Position numbers and translations under genes: made by a program
The notes under the pieces: model-generated
What the model was told of the DNA's origin: nothing
Database searches by the model: none
What the model saw: only the letters and a program-made list of their open reading frames with translations
In this document: positions 3,000-44,548 of the stretch, one piece after another
Layout of the letters: each line of letters opens with the position of its first letter
Numbering within the stretch: the stretch's first letter is position 1
Source of the DNA: a virus
Taxonomy: Duplodnaviria > Caudoviricetes
Reading direction: 5' to 3' (one strand)
Virus record (IMG/VR): IMGVR_UViG_3300021431_000076
Coordinates: 224,001-288,000 of that record
Length of the DNA: 64,000 nt

Positions 3000-5900
3000 A
3001 TGTTTAACAACATGTATGGGCAAACTCAGGTCCAACAACCTGTACAGCAACAACCATTCCAAATGCCACAAATTGCATCATTAGAACAGGAAATGCAGGA
3101 ACAAATGAGAGTTAAATGCACTCCTCATATGTATGTAGTGAATAATCCCAAAGTACAACTTCAAGAACCTGTATTAGAATACAACTATGGAGATGGAAGA
3201 GATTATGTTAGTGCAGTTCCAGATATTTCAAATCCTGCATTTAACCAAGAGATAGCTAATGCTGGAGGATTGGAAAATGTCATTAAGAAATATCCATATC
3301 AACAACTTAAGATTGATGATAACGGAAAGCTGGCACCAGTTGAACAAAATCTGGGATATGATCCTACAATTACTAATGCTTATCATGTTATGTATCATTC
3401 TAATCTTAATAAGCAAAAGCAACAAGAAGAACAAAGAAAAAAGCAAGCTATGGAAGATATAGCTCCTGGATCTACTACTCCTAACATCTTTGTTCCTCAT
3501 TATAATAGACCTGGTGCTATTGCTAAGAAGTTGGTTGATATTGATGATGTAGCTAATCATAAGGAGGAAGAAATGTACGGTCCAAGTTTGTTTAGCTTAG
3601 TTGATATGGGAGATAAACCAGAAGAACTCTATGGATATGAAAAGATAGAGCAAGCATATCATATGGAGCCTGAAAATAAAGTAGCAGATTATAGAGTACT
3701 TCAAGAAAGCAATGTTGTATATAATCCTGCTCAACAAGAAACCTATATGATTGATAACAATCGTATACCTGAATTTATAGATATATCTAATCCTACCAAT
3801 GTAGTATTCAAACATCCAAATCCAGATTATAACAAAGCTCCTCAACAAGTTCAACAGCAGCAATTCCAACAAGCAAATCCAGGATATAGCTATTATGGTC
3901 AACAGCCAATGATTCAGTATCCTCAGGCTAATCAAGTAGGAACAGGATATAGCTATGATAGTGGAATGAATCCTAATATCTTTGGCTGGAATAGAAATGA
4001 TCAAGCAGCTCCGTTTGGTTCTATCCCTACAGCAGATCCTGGTTTAGCAAATCTCTTACTCAGTGTATTCAATCCTGCTACTGGTAAAGATGAATGGGTT
4101 CAATCTGGAGGACAACCACAGCAATCTAATATGGTTAATTTCAGTGATATGAACTCTGCTAAGGGTAAGATTACAAACAATGCTGTCGCTAATAACATGA
4201 GAAATCCAAATATTCAATATGGAGGTAACAATGTAAATTCGTATAATCCTTATCAAGCAAGAAACAATAGTCTATGGTTTAATACTCAAAGCACATATAA
4301 CAATGGATTCTATAGTTCTGGATATTATGGAGGAGGATCTGCAACTCCAGGAAAAAATCCTATTCAACAAACTTTTGCTCATTTAACAGATTTCGACTAT
4401 AAACATGGTCTAGGTATCAAAGTAGCAGTAAGAAATACTGGAAAGAAGGTAGAGACTAAAAGAGAAAGAGATCTTAGAAAGTTTGGTCATACTCCAGAAC
4501 CAAAGAGAAAGCTTACTTATCTTGAAAAGTTAACCCAAGTACCAACAGTTAGAGTTTATACGTTTAAGAATGAAGAACCTGAAAAGAAAGATGAGATTTT
4601 CTGGGATAAGAATAGTATGCAGAAGTATACTGAAGCTATGAAGAAAGCTATAGAACTTAAAGCAACTGATGAAGAAGCTAAGATGATGCAAGATCATCCT
4701 ATGAAATTGTCTGAAGATGATAAGAAGATGGCTGAACAGATTGCAGATCATATGGAGGAATGGGATGAAGTATATGCTACATTGATTAGAATGTATGGTT
4801 CTGATGAAGCAACTGAACACCCTGCTTTGAATTGGATGAGTCAAGAGCATTTCTATGTATTTATGAGACTTGCTAGAGGTAGAATTAAGTGGCTGCAAAA
4901 AATGGATATAATTGACAAGTCTAAGAATTATCATAGAGATTATAGATATCTTCAAATTCCATTGTATAATGTTAATCCTAATGATCCTAATGATCGAAAG
5001 TACATGTATAGAGAAGAAGAGGATGATTATTTTGAATTGAGAGAGGTTGATAAGAATGGTAATATCTATCATGTAGTAGACCATGGTGAGGATATTCCAG
5101 ATGATGTAAGACGAGCATTTATGGATGATATGAATACACAGATCAAATATCGTGTAGAAGCTATGCGTATCTATGAGAAGTCTATGTGGTTAATCAAAGA
5201 AAGAGAAGGGAAGAAATTAAATGATCAAGCTAATAATGATAAAGATTCTAAACGTAGTAATTCAGTATGCGGTTACGAGATTGACGGGTCTAATTACGGA
5301 AAAGATAAGACAGAAGAGAATAGCTCATTCAATAGCATGAATTATAATTATATGAGCTATGGTGCTCGTATGTATTATGAGAAACAAGAACAACAGCGTA
5401 GAGAACATCAGAAGATGGTGGATAATCAAAAGATGGTCTTTAGAAAAGCTTTTGGAAGTTCTATGACAGAGAAACAATTTAATGATTTCTGGTATGGTCC
5501 TCAGAATAATCCAGATAATCAATTGGATCCTGTATGGAAAAGACAACAAGAGCTTGCTGCTGTAACAAGAGCTAATATTGCTACTCTGTATAAAGCTCGA
5601 CCTTATCCTGAGAATTCTGAAGAGATACTTAATAAGTTTGAAATTAAGAGACTTAGAGAGATGGATAAGGGATGTATGGAAGGAGTAACAGATCTTAAAG
5701 AGTATTTCGATAACTTTGGTTATTTGGTGAACTTGTGTGAGATGGATGATTCTAGACAAAAGCAAAAAGAGAAAGGCAGTATTATATATAGACTAAATCA
5801 AAAGCTTAAAACAAATTTGGGATTTGTAAAAGAGAATATGGATAAAGTTGTAGATGTGGCTAAAGAAGCTCTTGGTATAGATCAATCTATATTAAAGAAG

Positions 5901-38607: not shown

Positions 38608-39267
38608 ATGAAGTTGATTGTAGTAGTAGATTTACAGAATGAATTCCTTGGTTGGCAACCTGAAGAGATTAAGAAATCTCTTCCAAAGAAAGTGGTGGAT
38701 TATCTAAAAAATCAAATGGAAAAGAGTGATCATACAAGAATAATATGTACTCGTGATACACATCTTGAAAAAGATTATAATGAATATTTTGAATCTTGGA
38801 CTTATCCAATTCATTGTGTTCGTGGTACTTGGGAATGGGAATTAGCAGATGAGCTTGAGGCATTCATGAATGATAGAGCCTATAAAAAGTGCTGGGTAGT
38901 CAATAAACCTACTTATGGAGACTATTCTGATATACTGGGACTTAAAAGACTCTTTAGATGGGAATTTGACGAAATTGAAGTAGTTGGTCTTACAACAGAT
39001 ATTTGTGTATTGGCTACTATGGTTATGCTCAACTGCCTATTCCCTAAAGCAGAATTATCTGTTATTGATGAGCTTACTTATGGTACTTCTGAAGAGAAGA
39101 AACAGCATGCTTATCAAATAATTAATTCTATGGGATTCCATATCAAGACACTTCAGGGATTTGATTATAATACTCCTGAAGCATGGGAAGATGAAGCTAT
39201 CGAAAATAAAGTTATTGATAAGTGTTTTGAGATGGCTGACAATCTTAAAGAGAAGGATGATGAATAA
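38608..39267 (+). CDS. pncA: Nicotinamidase / isochorismatase-family cysteine hydrolase
   Basis: VVDLQNEF, TRDTH, HCVxGT, K and GLTTDICV catalytic motifs. Confidence 0.8.
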   Translation: MKLIVVVDLQNEFLGWQPEEIKKSLPKKVVDYLKNQMEKSDHTRIICTRDTHLEKDYNEYFESWTYPIHCVRGTWEWELADELEAFMNDRAYKKCWVVNKPTYGDYSDILGLKRLFRWEFDEIEVVGLTTDICVLATMVMLNCLFPKAELSVIDELTYGTSEEKKQHAYQIINSMGFHIKTLQGFDYNTPEAWEDEAIENKVIDKCFEMADNLKEKDDE

Positions 39268-41870
39268 TGAGAAAAATGATCATCATGAGGGGCTTACCTG
39301 GTTCTGGTAAGTCCACATGGATTAGACAACATGACCTAGAGGACTATACTCTATCTCCTGATAATATTAGAAAGATTGTTGCTAATCCTGTCATGAGAAT
39401 AGATATTCCATACTTCACTGTAGATCAGACTAGAGATTTCATTGCATGGGGTATTCTGTTTGATGTTCTGGAGCAGAGAATGCAGAGAGGTAACTTTACT
39501 GTTATTGATGCTACAACTCTTACTGCAGACCAGTTCAATAGATATAAAAAGCTTATTGAGAGATATAAGTATAGAGCATTGATAGTAGACTTTACTGATA
39601 TGCCTCTAGAAGAGATCAAGAAGCAGAATGCAGAAAGAGCTAATACAGTAGGTTATGTTCCTGAATGGGCTATTGATAGGCTCTATACCAGATGGGAGAA
39701 TACTGAAGAGTTTATTAAGTCTAATAAGTTTAAGATTATTAAGCCTACCGACTTCTATGAGTTTGATAAGTTCATGTCTATGAAACCTCTTCAGCTAGAT
39801 GAAATGGGTTTCAAGAAAGTAGTATTCATTGGTGATATTCATGGTTGCTGGTCTGCATTGAATAACTACTTTAAGGATACTACTCCTAATGATCATCCTG
39901 ATACATTCTATATATTCTTAGGTGATTATTTGGATAGAGGCCCTGAGAATGTGGAGACTTTCAAACACTTATACGATTGGAGGGAATGCAAGAACGTCTT
40001 ATTACTGCAAGGTAATCATGAAGATCATTGGAAGAATTTTGTTCATGATAATATACCAGATGATGCTTATGAGAAGATTGATTTCTTTAAAGAAACTCTT
40101 CCTCAGTTAACTGAAGCTGGTATCACTAAGAAAGATATCGCTAGATTAGCTGATAGACTTGGTCAGTGTGCTTACTTGCAGAATAAGTTTACTCAAATTT
40201 TAGCTACTCATGCTGGTATCAATGGTATGATTAAAACTTATGAAGATGGTAAGAAGATAGCTACTAGCTTCTATGATTCTTATTTCCTTACTAAGATGAA
40301 TACCTATCAAATGGTACATGGTGTTGGTGGATATGGTGATGTAAATAAGATTGCTGAACAGTGGGAAGAATTCATCAATGTTTCTAAAGGTCAAATCAAA
40401 GGTGGAGAATTCAAATTCTACCAAATCTTTGGTCATAGAAATGATGATAAACTTCCTGTTCAAGTATCTGAACATGTCTTCAATTTAGAGGGTGGAGTAT
40501 CTATCCTTCTCAATGAGAATGCTAGACTTAGAATAGTAGAGTATGATGTTGAGAATGATACTATGACTCCTGTGGAGGTCATAAATCCTAAGTGGAATAT
40601 AGGTTATGAGAATACTCCTAATCCTCATACTGCTCTTATCAAAGATAGAATGATTAGAGCTAAGGGTCTTATCAATGTGAAGAGATTGCATGATAATGTA
40701 TGTGCATTCAACTTCTCTCATGATGCTTGGTATTCTAAAGGGTGGAATAGTCTTACTTGTACTGCAAGAGGATTGTTCATAGACGTGGAAAAGAATGAAG
40801 TAGTTGCTAGATCTTACGATAAGTTCTTCAATTACAAAGAAAGAAGAGAGACAAAAGATCTTGATCAGATGCTTAGACATATCAAGTATCCTGTAAGTGT
40901 ATATGAAAAATATAATGGCTTCCTTGGTATTCTTTCTACATACAATGGAGAATTACTGTTTTGCAGTAAGTCTGAGGATCATTTATCCACTTACAAGAGT
41001 AATAGCGATTATGTACCTCCTCTTGGTAAGAAGATTGAGTATGCCATTAAGGATGGTCTGCGGGCTATTATCCCAAAAGAGAAGCAAGAAAAGTTAAAGC
41101 ATTGGTTTGATGAGCATGAATATTATTCCATGTCTAGAATAGTAAATAAACATCTTATCGACCATAGACAACCATCTAACTGCATGGCTCTTCTCTTCAA
41201 AGAGAACTTTGAAAAGCTTGTTCCTATAGAAACTCAGGAGAAGATTAAGAAGTTCTTACTAGAAAAGAACTGCTCTATGCTATTTGAAGTAATTGATCCT
41301 GAAAGAGATCCTCATATCGTTGTATATGATAAACCTAGAGTAGTATTACTTGATATCGTATATAATGATATTGAGAAGCCAGCAACTCTCTTCAGTTATA
41401 AGAATCTGCAGAATCTAAATAATGGTGTCTTCCATATTGATCTCAAAGAGCAAGTAGAAGTCATTAAAGATGAAGAACATTTTAGAGCATTTGTAGAAGG
41501 ATTCTATGGTTCTACTCATCTTAACAAAGAAGGATTTGTATGTAAAGATGCTGAAGGATTCATGCTCAAGTTCAAGACAGCAGATTATAAGTTCTGGAAA
41601 TGTATAAGAACTATGCTTGATAGTATCAATGATAGTGAGTATGGAGCTGTTCCTACATTCAAGCATACTTGTCCTTACTTATCTGCTGAATTTGATTCTA
41701 CTGTGGTTCAATACTATAGTGAAAAGTTTGATAATCTACTAGAATTCTTATTAGAAAAGTTTGGTCAAGAGAGAAGAGATGAACGTATAATATTACCTCC
41801 TAACTTCTTAATCAAACCAGATGGTAGTAGATACAATCTTATCGAAATTCGTAAAATGGCAAACATGTAA
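39267..41870 (+). CDS. Trifunctional RNA repair enzyme: polynucleotide kinase, metallophosphoesterase and RNA ligase (Pnkp-like)
   Basis: GLPGSGKS P-loop; GDIHG, GDYLDRG, GNHE, HAG, FGH; ligase motifs EKYNG, FE, EGFV and KxK. Confidence 0.9.
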   Translation: MRKMIIMRGLPGSGKSTWIRQHDLEDYTLSPDNIRKIVANPVMRIDIPYFTVDQTRDFIAWGILFDVLEQRMQRGNFTVIDATTLTADQFNRYKKLIERYKYRALIVDFTDMPLEEIKKQNAERANTVGYVPEWAIDRLYTRWENTEEFIKSNKFKIIKPTDFYEFDKFMSMKPLQLDEMGFKKVVFIGDIHGCWSALNNYFKDTTPNDHPDTFYIFLGDYLDRGPENVETFKHLYDWRECKNVLLLQGNHEDHWKNFVHDNIPDDAYEKIDFFKETLPQLTEAGITKKDIARLADRLGQCAYLQNKFTQILATHAGINGMIKTYEDGKKIATSFYDSYFLTKMNTYQMVHGVGGYGDVNKIAEQWEEFINVSKGQIKGGEFKFYQIFGHRNDDKLPVQVSEHVFNLEGGVSILLNENARLRIVEYDVENDTMTPVEVINPKWNIGYENTPNPHTALIKDRMIRAKGLINVKRLHDNVCAFNFSHDAWYSKGWNSLTCTARGLFIDVEKNEVVARSYDKFFNYKERRETKDLDQMLRHIKYPVSVYEKYNGFLGILSTYNGELLFCSKSEDHLSTYKSNSDYVPPLGKKIEYAIKDGLRAIIPKEKQEKLKHWFDEHEYYSMSRIVNKHLIDHRQPSNCMALLFKENFEKLVPIETQEKIKKFLLEKNCSMLFEVIDPERDPHIVVYDKPRVVLLDIVYNDIEKPATLFSYKNLQNLNNGVFHIDLKEQVEVIKDEEHFRAFVEGFYGSTHLNKEGFVCKDAEGFMLKFKTADYKFWKCIRTMLDSINDSEYGAVPTFKHTCPYLSAEFDSTVVQYYSEKFDNLLEFLLEKFGQERRDERIILPPNFLIKPDGSRYNLIEIRKMANM

Positions 41871-42581: not shown

Positions 42582-43283
42582 ATGGCTACTAAAGAAGTGC
42601 TTACTATTGCTCAGATTATTGCTGAGTGTAAGTCTACACAAAATAAAATCTTCACTGTCATTGGTGATAGAGATTTTCGTCTAGTAGAATATTATATTAA
42701 GGCTAAGCCTTATATTGGTGCTCGTAACATTGCAGAAGAAGAAGAAAGAATCACTTCTGATGCTGATAAGATCTCTGATCTTATGGTTCGCCTTGATGCT
42801 CTTACTAAAGCTCGCATTAAGGCTAATGCTGAAACTATGGTTAAAGTTCCTGAGCAGCTTTCCCTCAAAGATCTCTTTGCAGGTAAAGAAGCTAAGGTAG
42901 AAGAGATCAGCATTGCTGAAGCTATTAATCGTAAGAAGTACTATATAAACTTCATGAAGTCTATTATAGCTAACTTCGAACGTCAGCTTTCTAATGCATC
43001 TTCTCGGAAAGGTCAGCTTGAATATGAGGCTGCTAATCTTGTCAATCATGACCTTGACCAGCAGTTCCCTCGCGATGTTCAAAAGAACTGGTCTACGGAT
43101 GCACAGAAAAAAGCTCGTGAAGAGCTTGAAAAGAAGTATGAAGTAGTTCGTCTTGATCCTAAAAACATCATTTCGAATGACTCTATTAATAAGCTCAAAA
43201 CTTCGGTAATGGACTATATTGATAAGATAGATACTACTCTGTCTATCATTAATGCTAAGACTGAAGTCACCATTGAGTACTAA
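42582..43283 (+). CDS. Coiled-coil protein, pattern similar to DIP1984-like proteins
   Basis: LTIAQ...ARIKANAETMV...SIAEAINRK...DTTLSIINAKTEV; early motif near 42536; SD AGGAGGT; CGT/CTT/GCT-rich codons like hup. Confidence 0.8.
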   Translation: MATKEVLTIAQIIAECKSTQNKIFTVIGDRDFRLVEYYIKAKPYIGARNIAEEEERITSDADKISDLMVRLDALTKARIKANAETMVKVPEQLSLKDLFAGKEAKVEEISIAEAINRKKYYINFMKSIIANFERQLSNASSRKGQLEYEAANLVNHDLDQQFPRDVQKNWSTDAQKKAREELEKKYEVVRLDPKNIISNDSINKLKTSVMDYIDKIDTTLSIINAKTEVTIEY

Positions 43284-43289
43284 TATCTG

Positions 43290-43820
43290 ATAAGTTTATT
43301 GCTTGGGAGACCAAAATATAAAATCAATCAACCCTTTTCTTTACTTGAGAAGTTGGTTCTTTTGGGGTTATAAAAGAACTTAAATTCTCTTAATGAATTC
43401 TTTAGAAAAAAAGAATCAGCGACTCATAATCGCTACATAATAAGGCAGATAAAGCAACGATCTTTTAAATCGTGTTAGCTTATCACATCTGGCATTAATA
43501 TAAAGATATGCCACCAGGAGACTTTAAACCTTTAAAGATTTAAATTTATAAAGTCTAAACTTTTAAACCTTTAAAAAGCCCCTCCAGAATTGACAGGCTC
43601 ATATAGATACCTAATAGCAAAGGGGCACTTTAACTTTATAAACTTTTATAAACGATTGGCAATAATATAATTTAAAACTTCCAATCATTATAAACCTTTA
43701 AAGATTTAAACTTATAAACCAAATCCTATACTAGCAACACTGTTACTCGAAGAGGGTCACTGAGGTGTTTGATTGACCTCAAATATCAGTTATAGGTGAT
43801 TAACCTGAGCATAAATTTAT
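43290..43820 (+). ncRNA. Candidate large structured ncRNA with internal TAAA repeats
   Basis: 17-bp terminal stem 43290-43307/43804-43820, second long-range stem 43331-43339/43749-43757, many internal hairpins, no ORF. Confidence 0.7.
43522..43720 (+). repeat. Three tracts of 7-9-nt units ending in TAAA
   Basis: CTTTAAA CCTTTAAA GATTTAAA TTTATAAA GTCTAAA CTTTTAAA CCTTTAAA; 20-mer TAAACCTTTAAAGATTTAAA exact at 43525-43544 and 43691-43710. Confidence 0.85.
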
Positions 43821-44000
43821 AAATAAAATGAGATTGCAATTTATTATCATCTTTGTAGCGAATCAAATGCTGCATGGTAGCTACGGTAATTTTTCCAGAA
43901 CCTAGCTCTAGTTTACATTTAAATTTAATCTCATTGATTTGCCGTTAAATTAAATTATTGATTGGATGGCAAAGTCGCGTAACTTAAAAAATCATACACT

Positions 44001-44048
44001 AAATACAGGTAGACTCCTTGTGAGTCTACCTGTATTTTTTCTTTTTTT
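44001..44048 (+). terminator. Strong intrinsic terminator closing the protein+RNA unit
   Basis: AAATACAGGTAGACTC-CTTGT-GAGTCTACCTGTATTT plus T run. Confidence 0.85.
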
Positions 44049-44105
44049 CAAGCATATATTATAGTAGTGATGAATGAATGTATTAAAAGAAAGGAAGGAT
44101 TCATC

Positions 44106-44450
44106 ATGATGGAAAACAAAGTAGTCGTAAACCTCTGCCCGCATCCGATTAACATTATTGCTTCTGATGGGAGCATCCGTAACTTTCCTAAATGTGAGGT
44201 ACCTGCAAGGGTATCCCAGTCTGAGGAAGTGGTTGGAAACATCCTTGGGGTGGAAATCACTCGCCAGAAGTTTGGCAAAGTTGAAAACCTTCCCGAGCCA
44301 CAGGAAGGTACTTATTTGGTTGTATCTCGCCTGGTTGTTGCGGCAGCTCAGGCAGAAGGGAGGGATATATCTGATCTGCTAATTCCTGGTCCTGGTGTAC
44401 GGGACGAAGAGGGACGGATAATAGGAGCCAAAGGCTTCTCCGTCCTGTAA
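44106..44450 (+). CDS. Small NLxPH-motif protein; candidate Crn4-like ring nuclease
   Basis: VNLCPH, PARV, LPEPQEGTYLVVS and VRDEEGRIIG; own early promoter and TTCG terminator; family link is from memory. Confidence 0.5.
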   Translation: MMENKVVVNLCPHPINIIASDGSIRNFPKCEVPARVSQSEEVVGNILGVEITRQKFGKVENLPEPQEGTYLVVSRLVVAAAQAEGRDISDLLIPGPGVRDEEGRIIGAKGFSVL

Positions 44451-44548
44451 TTTACTCGGGGGCTTCGGCCCCTTTATTTTTTCTTTTTAATTTCAATTAT
44501 ATATTATATTAGTGATCCAATCAATTTATTTCAATGGAGGATGATATT

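Follow-up and report, generated by a model that had tools for sequence, protein, structure and literature searches.

A knotted non-coding RNA of about 535 nucleotides beside a conserved protein gene in a jumbo phage

The stretch of DNA analysed here (the window, 64 kb) comprises bases 224001-288000 of the 332,775-bp IMG/VR record IMGVR_UViG_3300021431_000076, which belongs to a jumbo phage with a G+C content of about 31%. Within the window, a stretch of 783 nucleotides (nt; positions 43284-44066) is free of any open reading frame (ORF) of at least 40 codons. It is flanked by two plus-strand genes, an ORF of 233 amino acids (aa; 42582-43283) on the left and an ORF of 114 aa (44106-44450) on the right. 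Inside this gap, positions 43290-43820 encode a conserved plus-strand structured non-coding RNA with a core of about 535 nt. A terminal helix in two parts closes the RNA and a pseudoknot locks it; about eight hairpins lie within. Its closing stem begins 7 nt past the stop codon of the 233-aa gene, and no terminator is found between that gene and the start of the RNA. TAA codons occur 7-14 times in every reading frame of the RNA stretch, by which coding under a reassigned stop codon is ruled out. An initial annotation, made from the letters of the sequence, had proposed a large non-coding RNA at this place. This proposal is borne out by the closing stems, pseudoknot and hairpins kept through compensatory changes in 14 distinct sequences. 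The present analysis adds to it an obligatory partner gene, an array of 8-nt units, a wider family including the catalogued RNA RAGATH-27, and an alternative to one of the proposed stems.

Homologues of the RNA were found by following the partner protein, the product of the 233-aa gene. In this way 13 further distinct sequences were collected (16 loci in all), giving an alignment of 14 sequences including that of the window. One locus (L047) with a protein homologue of 43% identity was left out of the alignment owing to a downstream region that is too divergent and truncated. The protein relatives range from 97% down to 43% identity, and their contigs are labelled as rumen and gut metagenomes. 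Wherever a contig extends far enough, the gene is directly followed by an ORF-free gap of 700-870 nt, and this gap is kept even where the upstream genes encode anaerobic ribonucleotide reductase (NrdD/NrdG) and not the Pnkp-ligase found upstream in the window. Compared with positions 43284-43849 of the window, the gap DNA shows identities of 87%, 79% and 69%, down to 56%, and in the most distant clades the similarity consists of blocks at the two ends. Moreover, the RNA region is as well conserved as the fourfold-degenerate sites of the ORF, or better, in most comparisons (identities of 0.89/0.83, 0.80/0.66, 0.66/0.52 and 0.62/0.46 for RNA region and ORF sites, respectively). Conservation stops at about position 43849; the following 150 nt are specific to this genome, and a terminator hairpin at 44001-44037 is conserved again. 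Searches by DNA similarity in phage and plasmid collections returned no match to the RNA locus, and a DNA pattern scan of IMG/VR returned the sister phage only. A similar scan of Joint Genome Institute (JGI) metagenomes gave one true locus, the 17 others being chance or coding matches rejected by nhmmer and inspection.

The comparative evidence for the RNA is decisive, because the 14 homologues keep its stems, pseudoknot and hairpins by compensatory changes. When each of the 14 distinct sequences was folded singly, the 5' end closed on the 3' end, and RNAalifold found compensatory changes in the two-part closing helix, the 3' hairpin and H6, all of which it recovered. For counting, a structure of 41 pairs was used, made up of the closing helices, the second stem of the initial annotation, the 3' hairpin, the pseudoknot and H6, and the control was the same structure with the pairing partners slid by 1-3 columns. 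Across these 41 pairs and 14 sequences, 93.7% of the cells are paired, as against 36-52% in the slid controls. Pairs changed on both sides number 14 (2-6 when slid), and the covariation score is 0.366 (at most 0.097 when slid). In the closing helix, columns 17/662 change from U-G (9 sequences) to G-C (5 sequences), columns 19/660 from G-C to A-U and columns 25/653 from C-G to A-U. The outer closing stem has differing sequence in at least six lineages with its pairing always kept. The pairing of 43290-43307 with 43804-43820 (17 bp, one bulge), with which the initial annotation had closed the molecule, is present exactly where it was placed and belongs to the minimum-free-energy fold. Covariation in the terminal stems, whose absence had been named beforehand as speaking against the RNA, is found at the columns just given.

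The strand is likewise settled by the alignment. The helices contain 91 G-U cells and only 8 A-C cells, an excess which fixes the plus strand as the acting one, as had been claimed, and disfavours a DNA cruciform. Folding energy, which had been suggested as a check, is less telling. The plus strand folds better than its dinucleotide shuffles (z = -4.09), but the minus strand does so alike (z = -4.05); from energy alone, neither the strand nor the existence of an RNA can be established.

Both the 3' hairpin P3 and the complementarity of its loop to a strand near the 5' end are present as first described. The two adjacent pseudoknot pairs that change on both sides in five of the 14 sequences (columns in Table 1) probably represent one or two evolutionary events. 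The second stem (43331-43339 with 43749-43757, 9 bp; P2 in Table 1) fared less simply. It is present and part of the minimum-free-energy fold, but it has to be taken as uncertain, or as one of two states, because a competing local hairpin (43742-48/43754-60) covaries better on both sides. In P2, 87% of the cells are paired, a single pair is changed on both sides and most changes are one-sided, while forced opening of the stem costs 5.7 kcal/mol. The local hairpin may be either the native structure or a state alternating with P2.

The internal hairpins listed in the initial annotation (the inner stem of H1, and H3, H5, H6 and H7) are all present, and they too belong to the minimum-free-energy fold. 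Among the homologues, internal hairpins recur at the same sites with unrelated stem sequences. In H1, 10 of the 14 predicted pairs show two-sided changes, and all five pairs of H4 are compensated in eight sequences. H3, whose stem of 5 bp carries a 7-nt loop resembling a CAU anticodon loop, is present in the window, L005 and L017; in the L024 clade the stem is shorter and the central loop letters are unchanged. The loop of H4 carries GUU or UAA at the anticodon-like position in homologues, and some of these break the U33 rule (U at the second loop position). Since the tRNA rule is broken there, mimicry of anticodon arms by H3 and H4 may be taken only as a lead. ARAGORN reports no tRNA or tmRNA in the window, and the resemblance of H3 and H4 is limited to anticodon arms.

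Table 1. Coordinates of the RNA, its partner gene and its 3' surroundings in the window
Feature	Position	Strand	Remarks
Partner gene, 233-aa helical protein	42582..43283	+	ORF; always directly upstream of RNA
Closing helices, 5' strands	outer P1 43290-43298; P1 43299-43307; P1b 43309-43313	+	Pair with 43797-43820; covariation at columns 17/662, 19/660, 24/654, 25/653
Pseudoknot, 5' strand	43325..43331	+	Complementary to loop 43769-43775; columns 40/626 and 41/625 two-sided in 5/14
P2, 5' strand (partner 43749-43756)	43332..43339	+	Uncertain or alternative state
H1	43347..43389	+	Outer stem 43347-51/43385-89, inner stem 43355-64/43371-80, conserved loop; in all homologues, with different stem sequences
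H2, H3	43397..43434	+	H2 43397-403/43410-416, H3 43418-22/43430-34; fold, homologues
H4	43448..43484	+	5-bp stem and 7-nt loop (43453-43476) within outer stem; loop resembles UUU anticodon loop
H5	43490..43513	+	Stem 43490-95/43508-13 kept, loop varies between window and L005
Tract A	43521..43578	+	About 7 units ending A-A-A-C/G, about 8-nt spacing
H6, conserved internal loop	43578..43626	+	Stem 43578-83/43621-26; 6/6 stem pairs two-sided across 14 sequences; C-G to U-A already between window and L005
Tract B	43628..43653	+	3 units; unit spacing
H7	43654..43686	+	Stem 43654-59/43681-86; hairpin at same place with unrelated stems in other clades
Tract C	43688..43727	+	4 units and conserved single-stranded box 43721-43727; similar box in distant relatives
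Local hairpin, 5-nt loop, alternative to P2	43742..43760	+	43742-48/43754-60; three pair types at columns 595/608, two at 598/604
P3, 9-nt loop	43761..43781	+	Stem 43761-43766/43776-43781; loop holds pseudoknot 3' strand 43769-43775; 100% of cells paired; G-C to A-U in 6 sequences
Closing helices, 3' strands of P1b, P1, outer P1	43797..43820	+	Fold, covariation
Variable 3' tail, outside conserved RNA	43850..44000		Missing or dissimilar in L005 and every other homologue
Intrinsic terminator	44001..44047	+	16-bp hairpin and U run; likely 3' end of primary transcript

Another distinctive component of the RNA is an array of short units. Three A/U-rich tracts (43521-78, 43628-53 and 43688-722) lie between hairpins H5, H6, H7 and the 3' domain, and together they contain about 14 units, each with A-A-A and then C or G at its end, at a spacing of 7-10 nt with a mode of 8. 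Autocorrelation at lag 8 reaches a z of 3.0 in the window and of 3.5-4.7 in six of eight other homologues, the values in L021 and L023 being 1.9-2.1. Additionally, a direct repeat of 28 nt with 96% identity is common to tracts A and C. Between the window and the sister phage L005, tract A carries several changes which are uncompensated in tract C, and the core of each unit is kept. Thus, recognition of the units fits better than pairing between the tracts.

Among known families, no counterpart of the RNA was recognised. Rfam 15, scanned at gathering score over the 64-kb window, gave no match (GOLLD, OLE, HEARO, group I and II introns, RNase P, signal recognition particle (SRP) RNA, 6S RNA and others), in agreement with the initial annotation, which could not assign the RNA to tmRNA, RNase P, SRP RNA or an intron. 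Lenient Rfam scans of the locus and eight homologous loci gave chance-level matches to unrelated families only, and a search with RF01998, a group II intron domain model, gave no match. A type III toxin-antitoxin RNA (ToxI-like, with tandem repeats of about 36 nt ahead of the gene for an endoribonuclease toxin) was rejected, as the units here are of 8 nt, interrupted by hairpins and placed downstream of the gene, whose protein has no nuclease match.

Distant homologues of the partner protein were detected by tblastn in Salmonella phage PVP-SE1 (gp82, noted as similar to T5.085), Cronobacter phages, the Xanthomonas jumbo phage XaC1 and Dulem virus 39. In all three of the genomes opened (PVP-SE1, XaC1 and Dulem virus 39), the gene lies in a tRNA cluster or beside genes for RNA repair or translation, for example those of RtcB ligase or peptidyl-tRNA hydrolase. 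The gene is followed in these three by unannotated gaps of 300-450 nt that fold closed and contain A-rich units of the same type, with a period of about 7 nt. Autocorrelation at lag 7 gives a z of 3.7 in Dulem virus 39 and 6.5 in PVP-SE1, the peaks in XaC1 being weaker (z of 2.2 and 2.6 at lags 7 and 9, respectively). The equivalent RNA is directly followed by tRNA genes in Dulem virus 39 and PVP-SE1. PVP-SE1 (L048) has a second unannotated gap of about 975 nt in its cluster (4022-4997, from tRNA-Ile to tRNA-Leu), which has no Rfam match at gathering score.

Part of this wider family has already been catalogued, as RAGATH-27, an orphan candidate small RNA described by Weinberg et al. 2017 (PMC5737381). 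The RAGATH-27 model (RF03100) matches the first 84 nt of the Dulem virus 39 RNA with 77.2 bits, the gathering score being 76.1. This match starts 11 nt past the stop codon of the protein homologue (25% identity over 99% of the query). The placement of RAGATH-27 beside this gene is an observation of the present analysis and is not taken from Rfam. The 46 conserved positions at the 5' end of RAGATH-27 that are given as unpaired have short boxes in common with the start of the window RNA, and in the full Dulem virus 39 RNA they are predicted to pair with the 3' end. It is therefore probable that RAGATH-27 covers just the 5' edge of a larger, closed RNA of this kind. Like the window RNA, RAGATH-27 stands immediately 3' of a T5.085-like (PVP-SE1 gp82-like) gene, and the full Dulem virus 39 RNA is closed and carries periodic units. 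The two differ in size and spacing: the Rfam model has 86 nt, and the window RNA has about 535 nt against about 300 nt, at least five extra hairpins, and a spacing of 8 instead of 7 nt. With Dulem virus 39 as the positive control at its 77.2 bits, the RAGATH-27 model has no match at the window locus at E<=10, and its best score in the genome is 16.6 bits, elsewhere. Letters in the Dulem virus 39 RNA that look like a hammerhead are matched by no ribozyme model. The window RNA is an unusually large variant, with a period of 8 nt, of a phage RNA-plus-protein pair that is catalogued only as an orphan fragment. The literature searched on RAGATH-27, T5.085, DUF6847/DIP1984 and jumbo-phage structured RNAs contains no description of this gene-RNA pair.

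The partner protein is itself poorly represented in the databases. It has no Pfam family at E<=0.01, and at E<=1 only sub-threshold matches at chance level. It matches PHROG 1491 over its full length (2e-18); the 'tail fiber' label of that group is doubtful, as it traces to an unsupported RefSeq annotation of phage PVP-SE1. The AlphaFold2 (AF2) model consists mostly of long helices, with a predicted local distance difference test (pLDDT) score of 87. Modelled as a homodimer, the protein scores 0.75, the best of three controls being 0.00; the predicted contact is extensive and symmetric, contacts agree between runs to at least 89% and the pLDDT of the partner is at least 86. Of proteins solved as one-chain pairs, 20 of 30 reach the mark set for the dimer score; of those solved as single chains, 1 of 23 does. 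Self-association as a symmetric dimer is supported by these models. Searches of Pfam, PDB sequences, PDB folds and the Atlas gave no function for the protein. In the PDB, the closest match is 3kdq (E 7e-3), itself without known function; the other best hits are uncharacterised phage proteins in BFVD and a weak lead to DUF6847.

The 3' end of the primary transcript is likely to be set by the intrinsic terminator (Table 1). Its hairpin is identical in L005 (L005:5373-5420) and conserved in L024, L025, L026 and L014. It is almost unchanged in phages whose flanks have diverged beyond alignment, and a weaker look-alike lies near 44471-44515. The variable tail ahead of the terminator holds a 60-nt phoH-like scrap on the minus strand (43852-43911), which is 87% identical to G000:C1:171660-171719, the Walker-A part of the phoH-like gene of the phage itself. 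The scrap contains a 1-nt frameshift and is missing from the sister phage; a plus-strand RNA would be complementary to the phoH-like mRNA.

As the best explanation, with a probability of roughly 0.55, the gene and the RNA may be proposed to be transcribed together and to yield a ribonucleoprotein, with the unit array as the binding site of the dimeric helical protein. The RNA would be made as the tail of the transcript of the 233-aa gene and would end at the terminator. Co-transcription is suggested because the RNA starts so close to the stop codon and because a strong, conserved terminator stands behind it but none separates it from the gene. The predicted symmetric homodimer would bind the approximately 14 units, 8 nt apart, in the three tracts, while the G-C-clamped hairpins and the knot would hold these tracts in a fixed geometry. 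Speculatively, the ribonucleoprotein might serve an RNA- or tRNA-centred host takeover or counter-defence. Such a role is suggested because distant relatives sit in tRNA clusters or beside RNA-repair genes and because H3 and H4 look like anticodon arms. A more elaborate version, tentative and on the unlikely side, would be an undescribed phage ribonucleoprotein particle in which copies of the protein read the 8-nt units and which acts on tRNA- or RNA-directed defences of the host or on translation, for instance as a decoy or trap for an anticodon nuclease. This is hinted at by the anticodon-arm-like hairpins, the neighbourhoods rich in RNA-repair genes or tRNAs, and the occurrence of the pair in phages ranging from T5-like to jumbo.

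Several known systems offer partial parallels to the proposed ribonucleoprotein. RNAs that titrate or wrap a protein are represented by CsrB/RsmZ with CsrA and by the trp leader with the TRAP 11-mer. As in these, many copies of a short motif lie at regular spacing between hairpins; however, the motif, the period, the fold of the partner and the setting are unrelated, and the array of the window is placed within a knotted, closed RNA encoded beside its presumed partner. The tmRNA with SmpB resembles the pair in the closing of the molecule by its ends, the pseudoknots, a small dedicated protein, a tRNA-related context and, in the window RNA, hairpins like anticodon arms. It differs in that the window RNA has no acceptor or T-arm, no tag reading frame and no tmRNA match in ARAGORN or Rfam.

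Some points weigh against the ribonucleoprotein. The protein is joined to the RNA solely by the conserved adjacency of gene and RNA, and it carries no recognisable RNA-binding domain. The tracts consist of self-complementary letters with palindromic hexamers and pair mutually in the energy model; as pairing between tracts is possible, the tracts may be something other than single-stranded binding sites. The period of the units, 8 nt in the window RNA and about 7 nt in the distant relatives, is awkward for a single conserved mode of reading. The link to tRNA is missing in this genome, whose sole tRNA lies 135 kb from the RNA locus. Furthermore, the phage is uncultured, and the RNA ends given here are those predicted from the sequence.

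Two other explanations accept the RNA and assign it a different role. The RNA could work without protein, as an RNA-only machine or assembly in the manner of ROOL and GOLLD, perhaps multimerising via its A/U tracts, with the gene linked by co-transcription only. Its size and ornate architecture lie in the range of ROOL, which averages 581 nt, was first found in rumen data and shares with GOLLD a phage origin and a tRNA-cluster context (PMC5737381), as do the relatives described here. The window RNA has in common with both the 500-800 nt class, many stems with pseudoknots, phage or prophage origin, tRNA association in relatives and an unknown function, and with ROOL the rumen link. RNA-only multimers of ROOL and GOLLD, their cages, are reported in a preprint (bioRxiv 10.1101/2024.12.08.627333), and the palindromic hexamers of the tracts could pair between molecules. 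However, neither an obligatory partner gene nor a periodic array of short units is known for ROOL and GOLLD, and here the adjacency is strict across protein identities of 43-100% and into very distant phages, which co-transcription alone does not predict. There is no match in sequence and structure to ROOL or any other Rfam model. With the ROOL model (RF03087, 574 positions), the window, the genome and the eight homologous loci gave no match, whether at gathering score or at E<=10; one direct search, empty as well, is weak by itself, since its control genomes also gave nothing. The changes of tract A relative to L005, uncompensated in tract C, also disagree with pairing tracts. An RNA-only assembly is considered improbable. 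Equally doubtful is a cis-acting 3' untranslated element without function as a free RNA, by which the mRNA for the 233-aa protein would be stabilised or autoregulated, for example through a nuclease-resistant cap or through an operator titrating the gene product. The close start behind the stop codon, the missing terminator between the two and the constant company of the gene are what such an element would show. However, an RNA of about 535 nt that includes a pseudoknot, eight hairpins with covariation and an array of 14 units far exceeds the needs of known 3' stabilisers, and the tRNA genes directly after the RNA in Dulem virus 39 and PVP-SE1 suggest release from a precursor, as for a stable RNA.

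The remaining two explanations dispense with a functional RNA and can in effect be set aside in view of the G-U bias, the covariation over long distances and the conservation of length. An element acting as DNA (a replication origin, an iteron array, a packaging site or a promoter cluster) might be suspected from the A/T-rich direct and inverted repeats, the equal folding of both strands and the promoter-like hexamers, 12 against 7.9 expected. It is made very improbable by helices with G-U pairs, which in DNA or on the other strand become A-C mismatches, by compensatory changes across distances of 450 nt, by an 8-nt spacing out of phase with the DNA helix, and by the lack of any turn in composition or GC skew at the site. 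A decayed gene remnant that merely looks structured is hardly credible at all. Its one attraction is the phoH-like scrap; this is not part of the conserved RNA and occurs in this genome only, the rest of the region has no protein similarity to the phoH-like gene, and in all relatives the gap is kept at 700-870 nt with its conserved blocks.

Large, highly structured RNAs are rare in bacteria and phages, and each characterised class has revealed unusual biochemistry. The present locus provides a well-delimited RNA of about 535 nt, supported by covariation and accompanied by an obvious candidate for a partner protein. The 86-nt RAGATH-27 is probably a fragment of a larger and varied family of closed, knotted RNAs beside one protein family in many phages. 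As some carriers are cultured (PVP-SE1, XaC1), function can be tested at the bench, and the two unit spacings of 8 and 7 nt constitute a natural experiment on how the array is read.

The surroundings of the locus contain some further features. Upstream, an ORF of 867 aa (39267-41870) encodes a P-loop kinase, a metallophosphatase and a T4 Rnl1-type RNA ligase in a single chain (Pnkp-ligase). This fusion is a complete enzyme for healing and sealing RNA; it is kept upstream in several relatives, with NrdD/NrdG in its place in others. The only tRNA gene of the 333-kb genome is Arg-UCU (C1:132161-132235), and tRNA-rich relatives carry the same gene-RNA pair. Past the terminator, the 114-aa gene matches PHROGs 21731 and 30542, both of unknown function. 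The sister phage lacks this gene and has another one there, which marks the region downstream of the RNA as a swap point.
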